The notes under the pieces are model-generated. The model was given only the letters and a program-made list of their open reading frames with translations, searched no databases and was not told the origin of the DNA. A stretch of 64,000 nucleotides of DNA from Candidatus Methylomirabilota bacterium (GTDB taxonomy: Bacteria > Methylomirabilota > Methylomirabilia > Rokubacteriales > CSP1-6), in NCBI GenBank assembly GCA_035315345.1, contig DATFYA010000187.1, positions 3,436 through 67,435 on the forward strand. The letters run 5' to 3'. This document shows positions 20,140 to 54,920 of this stretch, piece after piece. Position 1 is the first letter of the stretch; each line of letters begins with the position of its first letter. A program made the position numbers and the translations under genes.

Positions 20140-20997
20140 GTGCCCGCACCGGCGCGACCGGTGGTGGTGTGGATCCACGGCGGCTCGGTGGAGGACTCGT
20201 CGGTGATGGTGGCCGATCTCGAGCCGTTCGTCGGGCGCGTGCGCGCGCTCTTCCCGGATACGCGCGGCCACGGGCTCTCCTCGCGCTTCGAGCGCGTCGA
20301 GGACTACACCTACGCGCGCAAGGCCGAGGACCTGCTGGCGTGGCTGGACGTCCTCGGCGTGCGCGAGGCGGTCTGGGGCGGCGCCTCCATGGGCGGCGCG
20401 CTTTCGCTGTGGATCGCCGCGCACGCGCCGGAGCGCGCGCGGGCGGTGGTCTCGATCAGCGGACCACCCTACGAGCCCAGCGCCGAGGACAAGACGTGGT
20501 GGGCGCGCCACCGGCCGCTCGTCGAGGCCGGCCGCTTCGAGGACTACTTCGACGCCAACGTGCGCCTGCGCATGGGCGAGGCCGCGCTGGCCCGGCTCAA
20601 GGCGCGGCCGGATCGCTACGCCGAGCTGGCCGCCTCGCTGCGCCGCCACTCGGTGGCCTCGCTGCTGGCCCTGCTCGACGAGACGTACAGCCGCCAGGAG
20701 TGGCTCGCGGACTGCCGGCGCATTCGCTGCCCGGTGCAGGTGATCGCCGGCTCGGAGGACAGCTATCCGACCGTGGCCATGTCCCGCCGCGTCGCCGAGG
20801 CGATCCCCGGCGCGCGCTTCCACGTGGTCGAGGGCGGCCCCCACTTCCCCAACCGCACCCACCGTGCCGAAGTCCAGTCCGTCATCGCCACCTTCCTCGA
20901 CACGCTGGGGTCAGGTCTTGCATTACGACATTTTCTGGGACCTGGTGCGGCCGCCCTTCCCTCGAAATGTCGTAATGCAAGACCTGACCCCGGGTAG
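20140..20997 (+). CDS. alpha/beta-fold hydrolase
   Basis: The nucleophile elbow GASMGG and core strand VVVWIHG are present. A conserved-looking upstream in-frame stretch (EVVLPSGVRLHWREASADGA...) has no ATG/GTG/TTG, so the start is uncertain. The last about 30 codons are contributed by a palindromic repeat. Confidence 0.65.
   Translation: MPAPARPVVVWIHGGSVEDSSVMVADLEPFVGRVRALFPDTRGHGLSSRFERVEDYTYARKAEDLLAWLDVLGVREAVWGGASMGGALSLWIAAHAPERARAVVSISGPPYEPSAEDKTWWARHRPLVEAGRFEDYFDANVRLRMGEAALARLKARPDRYAELAASLRRHSVASLLALLDETYSRQEWLADCRRIRCPVQVIAGSEDSYPTVAMSRRVAEAIPGARFHVVEGGPHFPNRTHRAEVQSVIATFLDTLGSGLALRHFLGPGAAALPSKCRNARPDPG
20907..20991. repeat. 85-bp palindromic element: perfect 27-bp inverted repeats (GGGGTCAGGTCTTGCATTACGACATTT) around a 31-bp spacer
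   Basis: Left arm 20907-20933, right arm 20965-20991, exact reverse complements. It is AT-richer than the surrounding sequence. A second, truncated copy lies at 54871..54911. Confidence 0.75.
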
Positions 20998-21533: not shown

Positions 21534-22567
21534 TGCGCGTCGCCATCTCGCTGCGGCTGGCCCAGACCGACTGGGCCGAGGCCAGCGACTACGTCACCGA
21601 GGCCGAGCGGCTGGGCGTCGACTTCGTCTGGTCCGCGGAGGCCTGGGGCCACGACGGCGTCACCCCGCTGGCCTTCGTGGCCGCGCGCACCTCGCGCATC
21701 CGACTCGGCACTGGGATTCTTCAAGCGGGCACGCGCACCCCCGCGCTCCTCGCCATGACCGCGATGAGCCTCAACGCCATGTCGGGTGGCCGCTTCGTGC
21801 TGGGCCTGGGCGTCAGCGGGCCGCAGGTCATCGAGGGCTGGCACGGCATCCGGTTCGACCGTCCGGTGCTACGCATGCGGGAGACGGTCGAGATCGTCCG
21901 GCGCGCGATCCGCGGCGAGCGTCTTGAGTACAAGGGGCGCATCTACGAGCTGCCGCTGCCGGGCGGCGAGGGCAAGGCCATTCGCTCGGCGGCGCCGCCG
22001 CAGCCCGGCGTCCCGATCTATCTCGCGACGCTCTCGCCGCGAAGCCTCGAGATGACCGGTGAGATCGCCGACGGCTGGCTCGGCACCTCGTTCATGCCCG
22101 AGCACGCGCGCGTCTTCACCGACCACCTGGCCGCCGGCGCGGCGCGGGTCGGCCGCTCGCTGGCCGCGCTCGATCTGCAGGCCGGCGGCTTCGTGGCCTT
22201 CGGCGACGACGCGGCCCGGCTGATCCGCGCGCGCAAGCCCGGCCTCGCCTTCACCCTCGGGGCCATGGGCTCGCGCCAGCACAACTTCTACAACGACGCC
22301 TTCCGTCGCGCCGGCTACGAGGAGGTGGCCCGCGAGGTTCAGCGCCTGTGGCTGGACGGGCGACGCGAGGAGGCGGCCACGCGCGTGCCCGACGAGCTGG
22401 TGCTGGAGACCAACCTGCTCGGCACCGACGCGATGGTGCGCGCGCGCTTGCTCGCCTACCGCGACGCCGGGATCACGACCCTGCGCGTGGAGCCGGCGGG
22501 CGAAGGGCTCGCGGCGCGGCTCGCGACGCTCGGCCGGCTGCTGGACCTGGTCCGCGCGGTGGGATAG
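21533..22567 (+). CDS. LLM-class (luciferase-like) F420/flavin-dependent oxidoreductase
   Basis: ATGA overlap with the upstream stop. MRVAISLRLAQTDWAEA...GVDFVWSAEAWGHDGVTPLAFVAARTSRIRLGTGI... Confidence 0.8.
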   Translation: MRVAISLRLAQTDWAEASDYVTEAERLGVDFVWSAEAWGHDGVTPLAFVAARTSRIRLGTGILQAGTRTPALLAMTAMSLNAMSGGRFVLGLGVSGPQVIEGWHGIRFDRPVLRMRETVEIVRRAIRGERLEYKGRIYELPLPGGEGKAIRSAAPPQPGVPIYLATLSPRSLEMTGEIADGWLGTSFMPEHARVFTDHLAAGAARVGRSLAALDLQAGGFVAFGDDAARLIRARKPGLAFTLGAMGSRQHNFYNDAFRRAGYEEVAREVQRLWLDGRREEAATRVPDELVLETNLLGTDAMVRARLLAYRDAGITTLRVEPAGEGLAARLATLGRLLDLVRAVG

Positions 22568-22618
22568 CATGGCCCCCGGCTCTGCCCGAATGCATCCGCG
22601 ACCCGAGAGGAGTGCCCC

Positions 22619-23800
22619 ATGGATCTGAACTACTCGCCGGACGAGCTGGCGTTCCGTGATGAGGTGCGCGGCTGGCTGCGCGCCAATCTCCCCGACGATC
22701 TTCGCCAGAAGATGGAGAGCTACCAGGAGCTGTCGAGGGAGGAGCTGCTGCGCTGGCACAAGATCCTGGCCAGGAAGGGCTGGGTTGCCCCCGACTGGCC
22801 GCCGGAGTGGGGCGGCACCGACTGGAACGTGGTGCAGCGCTACATCTTCGAGGAGGAGTGCGGCTACGCGGCGACGCCGATGATCGTGCCCTTCGGGGTC
22901 CGGATGTGCGCGCCGGTGCTGCTGCAGTTCGGCACCGAGGCCCAGAAGAAGCGGTTCCTGCCGCGCATCTACCACGGCGAGGACTTCTGGTGCCAGGGCT
23001 ACTCGGAGCCCGGCTCGGGCTCCGACCTCGCCTCGCTCAAGACGCGCGCGGTGCGGGACGGGGACCGCTACGTGGTGACGGGCCAGAAGATCTGGACCAC
23101 GCTGGCCCATCACGCGGACTGGATCTTCTGCCTCGTGCGCACCGATCCCAACACCGGCAAGCGCCAGGACGGCATCTCGTTCCTCCTGATCGACATGAAG
23201 ACGCCCGGCATCACGGTGCGGCCGATCGTGTTGATGGACGGCAGCAAGGAAGTCAACGAGGTCTTCTTCGACGACGTGGCCGTACCGGCGGAGAACCTCG
23301 TCCACGAGGAGGGGAAGGGCTGGACGGTGGCCAAGTACCTGCTGGGCTACGAGCGGATGGGCACCGGCCGCATCGGCGCCTCCAAGCGCGAGCTGGCCCG
23401 GCTCAAGGAGCTGGCCGGCGAGCAGATGAAGGACGGCCGCCCCCTCATCGAGGACGCGCGCTTCCGCGACCGGCTGACCCGGGTGGAGATCGAGCTGATG
23501 GCGCTGGAGATCACCAACCTGCGCTTCCTGGATCAGATGCGGCGCAGCGGCCGGCCCCCCGGTGCCGACGTGTCGATGCTCAAGATCAAGGGCACCGAGA
23601 TCCAGCAGTCCATCACCGAGCTGATGATGCAGGCCGCGGGGCCGCTCGCCCAGGCCTTCCGCCCCGTCGACGCGATGGACTTCGACCACTTCACCGCCCG
23701 CCTGGCGCCGCGGTACTGCAACCTGCGCAAGGCCACGATCTACGCGGGCTCCAACGAGATCCAGCGCAACATCATCGCGAAGGCCACCCTCGGCCTGTAG
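22619..23800 (+). CDS. acyl-CoA dehydrogenase (catalytic-type subunit)
   Basis: 393 aa with N-, middle- and C-terminal ACAD domains. The C-terminal catalytic Glu motif YAGSNEIQRN is present. Good SD. Confidence 0.88.
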   Translation: MDLNYSPDELAFRDEVRGWLRANLPDDLRQKMESYQELSREELLRWHKILARKGWVAPDWPPEWGGTDWNVVQRYIFEEECGYAATPMIVPFGVRMCAPVLLQFGTEAQKKRFLPRIYHGEDFWCQGYSEPGSGSDLASLKTRAVRDGDRYVVTGQKIWTTLAHHADWIFCLVRTDPNTGKRQDGISFLLIDMKTPGITVRPIVLMDGSKEVNEVFFDDVAVPAENLVHEEGKGWTVAKYLLGYERMGTGRIGASKRELARLKELAGEQMKDGRPLIEDARFRDRLTRVEIELMALEITNLRFLDQMRRSGRPPGADVSMLKIKGTEIQQSITELMMQAAGPLAQAFRPVDAMDFDHFTARLAPRYCNLRKATIYAGSNEIQRNIIAKATLGL

Positions 23801-23839
23801 AAGGCGACGCGGCGGGCGGGGGGGCGATGTCCGGCGGGA

Positions 23840-23982
23840 TCGGGGGGTGGTCGTGGGGGGTCCTCTGACCACGTCCCGCGAGTCCGCGGCGACCGGAATT
23901 GGAGTTCCCAAGCTGGGCGCTGGAAGGGCGGTCTTCACCGGGCAGGAACGGGTCAGCCGGACCCCCCACGACCACCCCCCGA
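23840..23982. repeat. 143-bp element bounded by perfect 24-bp inverted repeats (TCGGGGGGTGGTCGTGGGGGGTCC ... GGACCCCCCACGACCACCCCCCGA); MITE-like or long structured RNA
   Basis: The arms at 23840-23863 and 23959-23982 are exact reverse complements. The element occupies the intergenic gap between the two ACAD genes. Confidence 0.7.
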
Positions 23983-24032
23983 CCCCGCCCAGCGTCGCGG
24001 CACGCATGAACCGTCCTCGTCAGGAGTGAGCG

Positions 24033-25178
24033 ATGAATTTCGATCTGAGTGAGGAGCAGCAACTGCTGGCGGACAGCCTCAAGCGGTACCTGGCCAACGA
24101 GTACACGATGGACGCGCGGAGCAAGATCGTGGACTCGCCCACCGGCTGGAGCGAGAAGGTGTGGGCGGCGTTCGCGGAGATGGGGTTGCTCGGCGTGCCT
24201 TTCGCCGAGGAGCACGGCGGCTTCGGGGGCAGCGCGGTGGACGTGATGCTGGTCATGGAGGCGCTGGGCGAGGGGCTCGTGGTCGAGCCCTACTGGGTCA
24301 ACGTGGGGCTGGGCGGCCGGTTGATCGCGCGAGCCGGCTCGGAGGCGCAGCAGAAGCGCATCCTGCCCCCGCTGATCCAGGGCAAGCACCGGCTCGCCTT
24401 CGCCCATACCGAGCGCGGCGCGCGCTACGACCTCGGTCACGTGCAGGCGCGGGCCAAGAAGAGCGGCGCCGGCTACACGCTCGAGGGCGAGAAGCGCGCG
24501 GTGCTGGCAGGCGCCTCGGCCGACACGCTGATCGTCTCCGCCCGCACGAGCGGCGGCGCCACCGATCCGGCCGGCCTCAGCCTCTTCCTGGTCGAGCGCT
24601 CCGCGCCCGGCGTGACGGTCAAGGAGTACCGGACCATCGACGAGCTGCGCGCCGCCGACGTGTGGCTATCGGACGTCTCGGTGCCGGCCGCGGCGCGGCT
24701 CGGCGACGAAGGTCGCGCGCTGCCCCTCATCGAGGACGCGGCCGACTACGCCACCGCGCTGCTCTGCGCCGAGGCGGTGGGTGCCATCCGATTCGCCAAC
24801 GAGGCGACGCTCGAGTACCTCAAGACCCGGCGGCAGTTCGGGGTGCCGATCGGCAGCTTCCAGGCGCTCCAGCACCGGATGGTGGACATGGTGATCAGCT
24901 ACGAGCAGGCGCGATCGATGGCGTGCCTGGCCTGCGTGAAGGTCGACACCGCGCCCCCCGCCGAGCGGCGCCATGCGGTGTCGGCGGCCAAGGTCAAGGT
25001 GGCCGACGCCTGCCGCCACGTGAGCCAGGAGGCGGTGCAGCTGCACGGCGGCATGGGCATGACCGAGGAGCTGAAGATCAGCCATACCTTCCGCCGGCTC
25101 ACCATGATCGGGCAGACCTTCGGCGACGCCGAGCACCATCTCGAGCGCTTCGCACGGAGCGAGGTGGCGGGCGGCTGA
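24033..25178 (+). CDS. acyl-CoA dehydrogenase family protein (partner subunit; canonical C-terminal catalytic-Glu motif not evident)
   Basis: 381 aa with an ACAD fold. The C-terminus (IGQTFGDAEHHLERF) replaces the usual YEGTSEIQ-type motif, suggesting an alpha/beta heteromeric ACAD as in FadE26/27-type pairs. Confidence 0.82.
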   Translation: MNFDLSEEQQLLADSLKRYLANEYTMDARSKIVDSPTGWSEKVWAAFAEMGLLGVPFAEEHGGFGGSAVDVMLVMEALGEGLVVEPYWVNVGLGGRLIARAGSEAQQKRILPPLIQGKHRLAFAHTERGARYDLGHVQARAKKSGAGYTLEGEKRAVLAGASADTLIVSARTSGGATDPAGLSLFLVERSAPGVTVKEYRTIDELRAADVWLSDVSVPAAARLGDEGRALPLIEDAADYATALLCAEAVGAIRFANEATLEYLKTRRQFGVPIGSFQALQHRMVDMVISYEQARSMACLACVKVDTAPPAERRHAVSAAKVKVADACRHVSQEAVQLHGGMGMTEELKISHTFRRLTMIGQTFGDAEHHLERFARSEVAGG

Positions 25179-25228
25179 CGACGTCAAAAGTTGACTCGTC
25201 GCCGGGCTTCCACCCATAGTCGTCCGAT

Positions 25229-26380
25229 ATGGACGGGCAGGAACCGACCGGGCCGCCCTCGTTCTTCCGCAAGCCCGCGCCTCCGGGCGGTCCCGCGTCC
25301 CGATCGATAGAGCCCTCCGCCGCGCCACCACCCCCGCCGCCACCGCCGCCCTCGCTCCCGCCGGCGCCCCCGCTCCCGCCGGCGCCCCCGCTCGGCGGCG
25401 AGCCACCCCGGTTCGGGCCGGCGCCCCCCTCCGACTTCGATGGCATTCGCCACCCGGTGTTCCACGGCACCGGAGGCACACTGTTCGGCATCCACGTCGT
25501 CAATACGCTGCTCATCCTCGTCACGCTCGGGATCTACTACTTCTGGGCGAAGACGCGGGTGCGCCGCTACCTGGCCGGGCAGACGGAGATGGAGCTGGAT
25601 CGCTTCGCCTACCACGGCACCGCGAAGGAGCTCCTGCTGGGCACCTTGAAGGCGGTGGTCGTGTTCGGTCTTCCCGTGCTGCTGCTCAATTTCATCCGCG
25701 ACGTCCTGGAGGTGCCCGCCACCCTGAAGGTCATCGCCGGGGTCATCTCCGGCAGCCTCATCTTCGTGTTCTTCCCGGTGGCGGTGGTAGGGGCCCGCCG
25801 GTATCGCCTGAGCCGCATGTCCTGGCGAGGGATCCGCTTCTCGTTCCGCGGCCGGGTCTGGGACATGGTGAAGATCTTCATCCTCGGCACGTTCCTGACC
25901 GGCGTGACCCTCGGGCTGTACTACCCGTTCTTCCTCGTCGATCGCCAGCGCTTCCTCGTCTCGCACTCCTATTTCGGCAGCGAGCGGTTCGGCTTCACCG
26001 GCCGCGGACGGGAGCTGTTCGGGCCGTTCGTGGTCGCGATCCTGCTGACGCTGCCCACGCTCGGGTTGATCTGGGTATGGTACGTGGCGCGCAAGCGCCG
26101 CTTCTTCTGGGATCACACCAGCCTGGGCCCGGCGCGCTTCTCCTGTCACGTGACCGGCGGCGCGCTGCTGGGACTCTGGATGGTCAACGCGATCCTGCTC
26201 GTGGGCACGCTGGGGATCGCGTGGCCGTGGGTGCGCGTGCGCAACATCGACTTCACCTTCCGCTACCTGGCCCTGGTCGGGCCGCTCGATCTCGCCCGCA
26301 TCGAGCAGCAGGCGCAGCAGGCGGGAAGCACCGGCGAGGGCCTGTCCGGCTTCTTCGACTCCGGCTTCGACCTGGCCTGA
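25229..26380 (+). CDS. DUF898 (YjgN-like) family inner-membrane protein with about 70-aa proline-rich N-terminal extension
   Basis: Repeated (F/Y)xGxGxELF...L.LGIYYPW motifs (FHGTGGTLFGIHVVNTLLILVTLGIYYFWAK, FTGRGRELFG..., GLYYPFF, GIAWPWV). The N-terminus contains PPPPPPPPPSLPPAPPLPPAPPL. Confidence 0.75.
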   Translation: MDGQEPTGPPSFFRKPAPPGGPASRSIEPSAAPPPPPPPPPSLPPAPPLPPAPPLGGEPPRFGPAPPSDFDGIRHPVFHGTGGTLFGIHVVNTLLILVTLGIYYFWAKTRVRRYLAGQTEMELDRFAYHGTAKELLLGTLKAVVVFGLPVLLLNFIRDVLEVPATLKVIAGVISGSLIFVFFPVAVVGARRYRLSRMSWRGIRFSFRGRVWDMVKIFILGTFLTGVTLGLYYPFFLVDRQRFLVSHSYFGSERFGFTGRGRELFGPFVVAILLTLPTLGLIWVWYVARKRRFFWDHTSLGPARFSCHVTGGALLGLWMVNAILLVGTLGIAWPWVRVRNIDFTFRYLALVGPLDLARIEQQAQQAGSTGEGLSGFFDSGFDLA

Positions 26381-26428: not shown

Positions 26429-27523
26429 ATGCGCACCGATTGGGAGGGTGTCTACCTCGACGGCCGCACCGCGGCCCGGCAGCCCGCCACCATCCGGCTC
26501 ATGCGCGAGGCCATCGAGATCACGCCGGCGGGCGGGGCGACGCGGCTCTGGCCCTACCGCGAGCTTCGCCAGACGCAGGGTTTCTACGCGGGCGAGCAGG
26601 TACGCCTGGAGCGAGGCGGCGATCTGCCCGAGACGCTGCTGGTGTCCGACCGCGCGTTCCTCGAGAGCCTCCACGAGGCGGCGCCGCACGTGGGCCCGCG
26701 CTTCCACGACCCGGGCCGGCGTCGCGCGCGACTGCGCTGGACCATCGCGGCCGGGGCCGGGGTGATCGCGGCCGCGGTCGCGATCTACGTGTGGGGGATT
26801 CCCGCGCTGGCCGCGCTGGTGGCGCCGCGGGTGCCGGTCACGTGGGAGGAGAGCGTTGGCCGCGCGGCCATCGCGCACCTGGCGCCGCCGGGCCGGCGCT
26901 GTGGCGATGCCGACCTGGCGCGCGTGATGGACGAGATGGTGCGGCGGCTGACCGCGCCCGGTCCGCCGTCACCGTACACGTTCCGGGTGTCGGTGGTGAA
27001 TCGCCCGGTGGTGAACGCGCTGGCCGTCCCGGGCGGCTACGTGGTGGTGTTCCGCGGGCTGCTCGAGCGGACCGTCACGCCCGAGGAGATGGCCGGCGTC
27101 ATGGCTCACGAGCTACAGCACGTGCTGCATCGCCACGCGACCCGGGCCGTCATCCAGGACGCCTCCACCGGCCTCCTGCTCATGGCCCTCACCGGCGACG
27201 TGACCGGCCCGCTCGCCTACGGCCTGCAGACCGCGCGCACCCTCGGCGACCTGCGATACTCGCGGCGCGCCGAGGAGGAAGCGGATACCGATGGCATGAA
27301 GATGATGCTGGCGGCGCGCCTGGATCCCGCGGGCATGATCACCTTCTTCGAGCGGATCCAGAAGGAGGAAGGCGGTGCCCCGCGCGCGCTGACCTATCTC
27401 TCCACGCATCCGCTCGCCGCCGACCGCCTCCAGCGCCTGAAGGCGATGGCCGCGGCCTGGACCGGCGCGCCCGAGCCCCTCGTGCCCGGTGACCGATGGG
27501 CCGACGTGGCGAAGCGCTGCTGA
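26429..27523 (+). CDS. M48-family zinc metallopeptidase
   Basis: HExxH motif HELQHVLHRH and a downstream Glu (EEEAD). The TM segment WTIAAGAGVIAAAVAIYVWGIPALA is present. Confidence 0.8.
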   Translation: MRTDWEGVYLDGRTAARQPATIRLMREAIEITPAGGATRLWPYRELRQTQGFYAGEQVRLERGGDLPETLLVSDRAFLESLHEAAPHVGPRFHDPGRRRARLRWTIAAGAGVIAAAVAIYVWGIPALAALVAPRVPVTWEESVGRAAIAHLAPPGRRCGDADLARVMDEMVRRLTAPGPPSPYTFRVSVVNRPVVNALAVPGGYVVVFRGLLERTVTPEEMAGVMAHELQHVLHRHATRAVIQDASTGLLLMALTGDVTGPLAYGLQTARTLGDLRYSRRAEEEADTDGMKMMLAARLDPAGMITFFERIQKEEGGAPRALTYLSTHPLAADRLQRLKAMAAAWTGAPEPLVPGDRWADVAKRC

Positions 27524-54368: not shown

Positions 54369-54920
54369 ATGATCCGCGGCGTGCCCGGCCGCACCCCGCG
54401 CGTGCACCCGGAGGCCTACGTGGATCCGGCCGCCCAGGTGATCGGCGACGTGACGATCGACGCGGGGGCCAGCGTGTGGCCGTTCACGGTGCTCCGCGGC
54501 GACCAGGACAACTTCGTCAAGCTCGGCCGCAACTCCAACGTGCAGGACAACTCGGTGCTCCACGTCACCCCCGAGTTCCCGTGCATCGTCGGCGACAACG
54601 TGACGATCGGCCATCGGGCGGTCGTGCACGCGTGCACCGTCATGAGCAACTGCCGCATCGGCATCGGCGCGGTGGTGCTGACCGGGGCGGTCGTGGAGGA
54701 GGGCGCGCAGGTGGGCGCGGGCGCGCTGGTGCCGCCGGGCAAGGTGGTGCCGGCGGGCTGGCTCGTCATGGGCGTGCCGGCCAAGCCGGTGCGGAAGATG
54801 AGCCAGGACGAGCTCGACGACATCCTCCGCAACGCCGTCGAATATCTCGACCTCTGGCACCGCGACTATCGGGGTCAGGTCTTGCATTCCGACATTTCCG
54901 GGTCTGACCCCGGGAGCTGA
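54369..54920 (+). CDS. gamma-class carbonic anhydrase / hexapeptide-repeat (LbH, PaaY/CaiE-like) protein
   Basis: Left-handed beta-helix hexapeptide repeats with the His triad (HVTPEF...IGHRAVVHAC). The last about 16 codons derive from a palindromic repeat. Confidence 0.8.
   Translation: MIRGVPGRTPRVHPEAYVDPAAQVIGDVTIDAGASVWPFTVLRGDQDNFVKLGRNSNVQDNSVLHVTPEFPCIVGDNVTIGHRAVVHACTVMSNCRIGIGAVVLTGAVVEEGAQVGAGALVPPGKVVPAGWLVMGVPAKPVRKMSQDELDDILRNAVEYLDLWHRDYRGQVLHSDISGSDPGS
54871..54911. repeat. second (truncated) copy of the 27-bp-IR palindromic element seen at 20907..20991
   Basis: GGGGTCAGGTCTTGCATTCCGACATTT (1 mismatch versus copy 1) followed by a short complementary arm GGTCTGACCCC. A further CTGACCCC repeat lies at 54921-54932. 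Confidence 0.65.

Follow-up and report, generated by a model that had tools for sequence, protein, structure and literature searches.

A gene-end hairpin element with a conserved loop and copy-specific arms in Methylomirabilota, present between the two genes of a putative heteromeric acyl-CoA dehydrogenase

In the 64,000-nucleotide stretch of a Candidatus Methylomirabilota genome analysed here (contig DATFYA010000187.1, positions 3,436 to 67,435 of the forward strand; hereafter the window), two adjacent acyl-CoA dehydrogenase (ACAD) genes, ACAD1 and ACAD2, are separated by an intercistronic spacer of 232 bp (23801–24032, + strand, from the open reading frame (ORF) coordinates) that contains a long hairpin. 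The large loop of this hairpin belongs to a repeat family with about 200 copies in Methylomirabilota in total, distributed over at least 50 distinct loci. The loop is the part that is repeated and conserved, whereas the arms are specific to each copy. The copies follow the stop codons of functionally unrelated genes and lie almost always in the sense orientation, and we judge the chance that the element is a cis-acting RNA hairpin of 3′ untranslated and intercistronic regions to be close to even, although not better than that.

The original prediction, made from the letters of this stretch alone, described adjacent ACAD genes 232 bp apart with exact 24-nt inverted arms at 23840–23863 and 23959–23982, and all of this is confirmed. 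An inverted-repeat search on the + strand extends the arms to 40 nt at 88% complementarity, giving a G-rich 5′ arm (23824–23863) and a C-rich 3′ arm (23959–23998) around the exact segments, with 95 nt between the latter. A conserved core of about 90 nt, which constitutes the loop, occupies 23865–23954 on the same strand as defined by ortholog alignment, motif scans, and nhmmer. The ortholog alignment delimits three motifs within it, CTGACCACG (23865–23873), AGTTCCCAA (23903–23911), and GGAACGGGTC (23945–23954), and base-pair probabilities indicate that the first and the last of these close the stem through TGACC/GGTCA and CG/CG pairings. The spacer folds with an energy of −147 kcal/mol, which corresponds to z = −5.3 for the + strand and z = −6.1 for the − strand relative to shuffled sequences. 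In the 64-kb window, nhmmer finds the core once, at 23865–23954, and no further copy of the arm occurs at up to three mismatches; dinucleotide shuffles of the window gave no match either. Rfam 15 yields no match in the window at the gathering score, and at E values up to 10 only sub-threshold matches to miRNA-precursor hairpins appear (28 bits vs 137). ARAGORN reports no tRNA or tmRNA. Among near-identical strains (L001–L020), the spacer measures 230–232 bp, and the variation of 1–2 nt is confined to G/C runs, reflecting either true slippage or a homopolymer assembly artefact.

The family was delineated with a core pattern taken from the ortholog alignment, in which CTGACCACG is followed after 28–29 nt by AGTTCCCAA and after a further 33 nt by GGAACGGGTC. 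Scanning one genome per species for this three-motif pattern returned 96 stretches, nearly all of them in metagenome-assembled genomes (MAGs) of Methylomirabilota/Rokubacteria, with 5–11 stretches per MAG. A scan of metagenomes in which the middle motif was left free returned at least 119; about 30 of these have no stem, the others being real copies, and the roughly ten stemless matches that were inspected resemble chance matches. Core lengths range from 87 to 93 nt and do not vary in multiples of three, and the core is thus non-coding. The stems comprise 30–68 bp (median about 45), are approximately 94% Watson–Crick paired, and are strongly asymmetric in composition, the 5′ arm being 61% G and the 3′ arm 63% C.

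The arms of a copy match each other and not those of other copies: the median complementarity score is 57.5 for a copy's own arms vs 19.5 for arms drawn from different copies, and within one genome all arms are different. Among the 246 loci compared, the 24-nt arm of the window is confined to ACAD loci. The original prediction had proposed a search for further copies of this arm and had named unique arms as grounds for giving the idea up; none were found outside the ACAD locus, and the notion of a family defined by its arms is refuted accordingly. What remains of the proposal that the hairpin is a repeat element is the multi-copy loop, while a MITE (miniature inverted-repeat transposable element) with shared arms it is not. 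A search of the literature found nothing on repeats or RNA motifs of this kind in Rokubacteria or Methylomirabilota.

Some carriers bear other taxonomic labels. MAGs assigned to Nitrosotalea, Acidoferrum, Deferrimicrobiaceae, Dormiibacterota, Limnocylindria, and Verrucomicrobiia carry the element (loci L037, L056, L059, L070, L085, L103, L109 (DATIWG01), and other SMAG bins), and the ACAD1 encoded in the ‘Nitrosotalea’ bin is 95% identical to that of the window. Errors of binning or classification probably account for these off-phylum labels. The element hairpins also frequently coincide with contig ends in assemblies.

The genomic placement of the copies is highly regular. Flanking genes were called from codon usage, by a caller whose output for the window agrees with the public calls. 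In the genome set, 30 copies lie between co-directional genes in the sense orientation, 42 between convergent genes, 1 between co-directional genes in the antisense orientation, and 0 between divergent genes; the corresponding numbers for the metagenome set are 24, 43, 5, and 0. The two sets together thus contain 54 sense and 6 antisense copies among co-directional genes and none between divergent genes, and 59% of copies are found between convergent genes. Even in the convergent context the element is closer to the gene with which it is in sense (37 of 43 cases in the metagenome set), and several convergent gene pairs have two facing elements, one for each gene. Such facing pairs are about 100–120 bp apart and have a common core subtype with different arms (L065, L128, L156, L181, and L203). 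The median distance from the stop codon to the start of the stem is 10 nt, most values falling between −33 and +35, and for about half of the copies between co-directional genes, the following gene begins 2–60 nt past the stem.

The genes upstream of the element form 50 clusters, and hence at least 50 distinct loci, each of which is conserved across genomes. Their functions are unrelated and include DctM, a luciferase-like monooxygenase (LLM) family oxidoreductase, a sulphur transporter, a CoA-transferase III, another ACAD, an MFS protein, an amidohydrolase, and LeuA-like, HtrA-like, and GlgC-like proteins. Sense orientation and stop-codon adjacency together link the core to the upstream gene's transcript, and a symmetric DNA hairpin alone would not yield these two properties.

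The stop codons beside the element show a bias of their own. Counted over about 170 element copies (L032–L246), the upstream gene ends in TAG in 30 of the 50 clusters vs 33% of the other genes at the same loci (Fisher p = 1.7e-4), and convergent genes that abut the 3′ arm use TAG in 48% vs 31%. The tetranucleotide GTAG is found near 41 of 165 left ends, as part of TAG stops at variable offsets. A recoding signal for read-through, selenocysteine (Sec), or pyrrolysine (Pyl) was considered and discarded, as the distance to the stop varies (from −33 to +35) and TGA accounts for a third of the stops.

The ACAD locus provides a view of how long one such copy has been in place. All relatives examined with the gene order LLM, ACAD1, ACAD2, DUF898, M48 have a homologous spacer of 220–241 bp, their ACAD2 proteins being 88–98% identical to that of the window, and nine further MAGs show the same state. 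Relatives in which the cistrons nearly touch, as the original prediction had supposed might exist, were also found: in a different gene neighbourhood, and with ACAD2 86–87% identical, the two genes are 4 bp or 2 bp apart. The existence of these relatives makes the spacer an added feature and the split state a derived one.

Covariation within the stem was assessed on 14 syntenic ACAD loci, for which RNAalifold predicts a structure of 49 pairs with 95% of cells paired. Nineteen of the 49 pairs are retained through changes on both sides, compared with 7.4 ± 1.7 in 500 shuffles, none of which reaches 19, and 2–6 when the partners are slid. As judged from these alignments, the split state is derived but old and not a fresh insertion. 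A recent arrival of a mobile hairpin with repeated 24-bp arms, uncoupling the gene pair as originally proposed, would agree with the relatives whose genes are 2–4 bp apart, but it is hardly credible given a spacer that every syntenic lineage possesses, even at an ACAD2 identity of only 88%, and whose stem has accumulated 19 compensatory pairs, an arm that has no copies outside the ACAD locus, and the failure to detect a target-site duplication (see below).

A working scheme for the element as an RNA can be proposed. Once transcribed, it would form a highly stable hairpin at the end of the upstream cistron, where it might block 3′ exonucleases, offer a double-strand processing site of the RNase III type, or act as a partial transcription stop. 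The simplest guess for the conserved loop is that it offers a recognition surface for a lineage-specific factor. At the ACAD pair, tight coupling of stop and start would have given way to separate translation of ACAD2, initiated at an AGGAG of its own, with both subunits presumably still made from one transcript.

Several observations weigh against an RNA role. Stems free of mismatches occur in 25 of 94 copies despite differing arm sequences, and arm-to-arm correction at the DNA level is an easier explanation for such perfect stems than selection on RNA. When stem mismatches are scored symmetrically, there is no excess of G·U (54) over A·C (59); an RNA-strand signature is missing from the stem, whose pairing might be maintained in the DNA. 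Neither base-pair probabilities nor column-pair counts reveal a covarying helix inside the core, where the closing helix is joined only by a possible GUUCC/GGAAC pairing, both motifs of which the search pattern itself prescribes. In the metagenome scan, which did not constrain the middle motif, TTCC is the most conserved part of that motif, without compensatory evidence. The sequence TTTT is found within 15 nt after the stem in just 3 of 94 copies. At the ACAD1–ACAD2 locus itself, L109 (6670–6871) combines orthologous arms with a core of another subtype, and in L062 (7307–7507) and L038 (2829–3030) the arms differ strongly from those of the window while ACAD1 is 94–96% identical; this pattern suggests that copies exchange sequence or that the arms turn over very rapidly. 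Finally, we infer every RNA-level step of the scheme.

These observations bear on a second explanation, in which the element is a palindromic repeat at the DNA level, REP/REPIN- or MITE-like and either selfish or structural, that undergoes arm-to-arm correction, has no RNA function, and survives only where it is harmless, after genes. Such a repeat would be multi-copy, and the mismatch spectrum, the many perfect stems on arms that differ between copies, and the swapped core at L109 and replaced arms at L062 and L038 within a single locus all speak for it. The neighbouring inverted pairs with a common core subtype, the G-run lengths that differ between strains, and the enrichment of TAG stops beside both ends, a possible target preference, can be added to its account. 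However, such a repeat would not readily give rise to 54 sense vs 6 antisense copies among co-directional genes or to a position beside the sense gene where genes converge, and the copies are retained at orthologous positions across many genomes. They also have no terminal repeats in common. No target-site duplication was detected, the longest common flank word having a mean of 4.36 vs 4.26 in mismatched controls, a comparison that duplications of 2–3 bp would escape. A search of 0.75 Mb of flanks for a longer, gene-carrying version or for solo ends returned only chance or contig-truncated motif matches. We consider a repeat without RNA function somewhat unlikely on this evidence.

Alternatively, the hairpin might be an efficient factor-independent terminator (‘I-shaped’, without a U-tract) or a bidirectional one, in which case ACAD1 and ACAD2 would form separate transcription units. 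A very stable GC hairpin directly after stop codons invites this explanation, as does the distribution of the copies, with 59% between convergent genes and 0 between divergent ones. The combination of a GC hairpin and a U-tract that marks a canonical intrinsic terminator is nevertheless not found, the U-tract being missing after the stem, and a scan of 22400–25400 revealed no terminator-like site. Nor did a scan detect a sigma-70 promoter-like site in the spacer from which a separate ACAD2 unit could start. The next co-directional gene often begins 2–60 nt past the stem, and 14 lineages retain a putative two-subunit enzyme encoded on both sides of the hairpin; because of these two observations, the hairpin is probably not a strong terminator, and efficient termination as its role appears improbable to us.

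The family can be compared with several known kinds of elements. Like repetitive extragenic palindromic (REP) sequences, bacterial interspersed mosaic elements (BIMEs), and REPINs, the copies are short, multi-copy, GC-rich hairpins that lie after genes or between convergent genes and are absent from promoter regions. What is conserved in REP-type families is the palindrome, whereas here the stem is copy-specific and a 90-nt loop is conserved, the stems are 30–68 bp long, the orientation bias is strong, and there is no conserved flanking tetranucleotide at a fixed offset. The copies share with MITEs the properties of being small, non-coding, repeated, hairpin-forming, and intergenic; unlike MITEs, they have neither common terminal inverted repeats nor a target-site duplication, and they are fixed at orthologous loci. 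A further comparison is with 3′ stabiliser hairpins and intercistronic RNase III sites, as exemplified by the sites in the phage T7 early mRNA, the REP sequence of malE-malF, and lambda sib. The element may resemble these in presenting a long sense-strand double-stranded RNA between cistrons or after a stop while downstream expression continues, but those sites do not make up families built on a large conserved loop, and the likeness is an analogy of function only.

The architecture, with its conserved large loop, free stem sequence, sense orientation, and stop adjacency, is seemingly undescribed as far as Rfam and the literature searched show. It is possible, if on balance doubtful, that the copies represent a phylum-restricted class of gene-end element, in which a loop of about 90 nt is mounted on a strictly paired duplex of free sequence after the stops of at least 50 unrelated genes and almost always in sense, and which either feeds a dedicated system for RNA processing or binding (small RNAs derived from the loop being one conceivable product) or is a mobile unit that has its arms rebuilt or corrected in the DNA by some as yet undescribed mechanism. 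In either case, an uncultured and abundant soil phylum marks many of its gene ends with one conserved element of unusual build. If the element acts as RNA, it is a candidate system for 3′-end formation, processing, or stability in organisms without genetics, and offers a handle for metatranscriptome analysis. If it acts as DNA, the perfect and copy-specific arms point to a process of arm correction or arm generation.

The gene pair that flanks this copy can be assigned with more assurance. ACAD1 (22619–23800, + strand, 393 aa) contains the Pfam domains Acyl-CoA_dh_N, _M, and _1, and ACAD2 (24033–25178, + strand, 381 aa) likewise has all three ACAD Pfam domains. Comparison with curated families suggests that ACAD1 is a PimC-like and ChsE4-like large (alpha, catalytic) subunit and ACAD2 a PimD-like small (beta, non-catalytic) subunit, and from their sequences the two are very probably the partners of a putative heteromeric ACAD. 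A Shine–Dalgarno sequence, AGGAG, is located 6 nt before the ATG of ACAD2 (24022–24026, + strand; sequence and ortholog alignment), and the alignment shows that (A/G)GGAG ahead of the ACAD2 start and 3′ of the hairpin is conserved in all spacer-bearing orthologues. Close homologues come from Methylomirabilota (Rokubacteria) MAGs, and more than 20 metagenome contigs from soil and rhizosphere encode identical ACAD1 and ACAD2 proteins.

The top NCBIfam models are TIGR03204 (pimC_large) for ACAD1, with 504.5 bits over the full length against a cut-off of 623.85, and TIGR03203 (pimD_small) for ACAD2, with 437.1 bits over the full length against a cut-off of 652.7, and homologues of ACAD2 are annotated as ‘pimeloyl-CoA dehydrogenase small subunit’ by JGI. 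In addition to these end-to-end matches, the pair resembles PimC/PimD in that the genes are adjacent with the large subunit before the small one. The R. palustris pim operon has what we take to be the layout pimFABCDE, and the neighbourhood here (hydrolase, DinB, LLM, DUF898, and M48) is not a pim operon. By these scores the two proteins are PimCD-like, yet not classifiable as a pimeloyl-CoA dehydrogenase. The nearest structure in the PDB is 4x28_A (ChsE4; 3.9e-57) for ACAD1, followed by Tcur3483, and ACAD2 matches 6wy8_A (Tcur3481) over its full length as well as 4x28_D (ChsE5).

The candidate catalytic base differs from the one first put forward. The original prediction read the motif YAGSNEIQRN in ACAD1 as carrying the catalytic Glu, which is wrong: the position of MCAD Glu376 (Y-E-G, in the J-K loop) is Ala in ACAD1 and Gly in ChsE4. 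In a four-way alignment of ACAD1, ACAD2, ChsE4, and isovaleryl-CoA dehydrogenase (IVD), in which ACAD1 and ChsE4 are 35% identical, Glu245 of ACAD1 (‘GYER’, helix G) aligns with ‘HER’ of ChsE4 and ‘YER’ of IVD. Yang et al. reportedly assigned in 2015 the helix-G Glu as the base of ChsE4. Glu245 is likely the catalytic base of ACAD1 from its aligned position, which is the base position used by IVD and LCAD (PMC11153573). Helix G of ACAD2 has ‘DYAT’ in place of ‘DYER’, both in the HMMER alignment to IVD and in the four-way alignment. That ACAD2 is a non-catalytic partner, as the original prediction supposed, is upheld by the alignments to IVD and ChsE4, which place no Glu at either catalytic position. 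A single MAFFT alignment had put the Glu of ‘CAE’ in ACAD2 under Glu245, and this candidate was dropped given that the HMMER-IVD and four-way alignments both put ‘DYAT’ under ‘DYER’.

The remaining conserved motifs are divided between the two proteins. In the four-way alignment, ACAD1 and ChsE4 keep YSEPGxGxD and GQK(I/M)WT, which contact the flavin ring and read YSEPGSGSD and GQKIWTT in ACAD1, and have lost RxQFGxPI and QxxGGxG. ACAD2 keeps the latter two as RRQFGVPIG and QLHGGMG, and its flavin-ring (isoalloxazine) motifs are degenerate, with HTERGARYD for xSEPGxGxD and GEKRAVL for GxKxWxT. In alpha2beta2 ACADs, the alpha subunit provides flavin-ring binding and the base, and the beta subunit binds the ADP-ribose part of flavin adenine dinucleotide (FAD) (PMC11153573). 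At the level of aligned motifs, the loss in ACAD1 and ACAD2 is reciprocal and matches this division of labour. The same division is seen in ChsE4-ChsE5 (FadE26-FadE27, 4x28) and Tcur3483-Tcur3481 (6wy8/6wy9). Those pairs are steroid enzymes, whereas the heteromer here is predicted from sequence and has no steroid-catabolic gene context.

A few points weigh against this assignment. Neither protein reaches the PimC or PimD equivalog cut-off, the J-K loop residue of ACAD2 is alignment-dependent (Phe or Asp, in neither case Glu), and ACAD2 has an extra Glu seven residues, or two helical turns, further along helix G. ACAD1 and ACAD2 could also be independent homomeric enzymes encoded side by side, and the 232-bp gap, the separate ribosome-binding sites, and the presence of all three ACAD domains in both would suit that arrangement. 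The reciprocal loss of complementary FAD-binding and catalytic motifs argues against it, as do top models that represent large- and small-subunit families and a pairing of ACAD1 with ACAD2 that is conserved in every relative examined, at a gap of either 2–4 bp or 220–241 bp; two homomers are distinctly improbable in our estimate. The original prediction of an alpha2beta2 FadE pair of the steroid type therefore stands as regards the heteromer, which the reciprocal motifs favour, and fails as regards the steroid FadE, the closest curated families being PimC/PimD and the gene neighbourhood (hydrolase, DinB, LLM oxidoreductase, DUF898, and M48) containing nothing that points to steroids. As an enzyme, the pair is ordinary, one further PimCD-like two-subunit ACAD.

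Around the pair, Pfam confirms the upstream alpha/beta hydrolase, DinB-family protein (DinB_2), and LLM oxidoreductase named in the original prediction. Downstream of ACAD2 lie a DUF898 membrane protein (25229–26380) and an M48 peptidase with a DUF7092 domain (26429–27523), and every syntenic relative has this pair conserved there. For DUF898 the start could be either 25229 or 25457, the longer form having an extra proline-rich N-terminus that is absent in relatives. On the minus strand, an ORF spans 23772–24440 in the window, and a minus-strand ORF of 88 aa has been publicly called at the spacer in L001 and others. The minus-strand ORF across the hairpin is almost certainly spurious because it has no Pfam hit and lies inside a non-coding element, and hairpins of this family may prompt further spurious ORF calls of the kind that the 88-aa ORF exemplifies.

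A second, unrelated hairpin is located 3 kb upstream (20907–20991), with arms of 34 nt that are 91% complementary. Members of its family share conserved terminal inverted repeats, GGGGTCAGGTCTT(G/A)CATT(A/C)CGACATTT, around variable interiors, the classical MITE-like build. This repeat is AT-richer than the genome, has a partial copy near 54870–54900 of the window, and has further copies at L032, L057, L062, L067, L079, L088, L109, L134, L136, L163, L207, and L233. The hydrolase ORF (20161–20997) overlaps it at its called 3′ end, and the C-terminal tail of the hydrolase may be read-through into the repeat.

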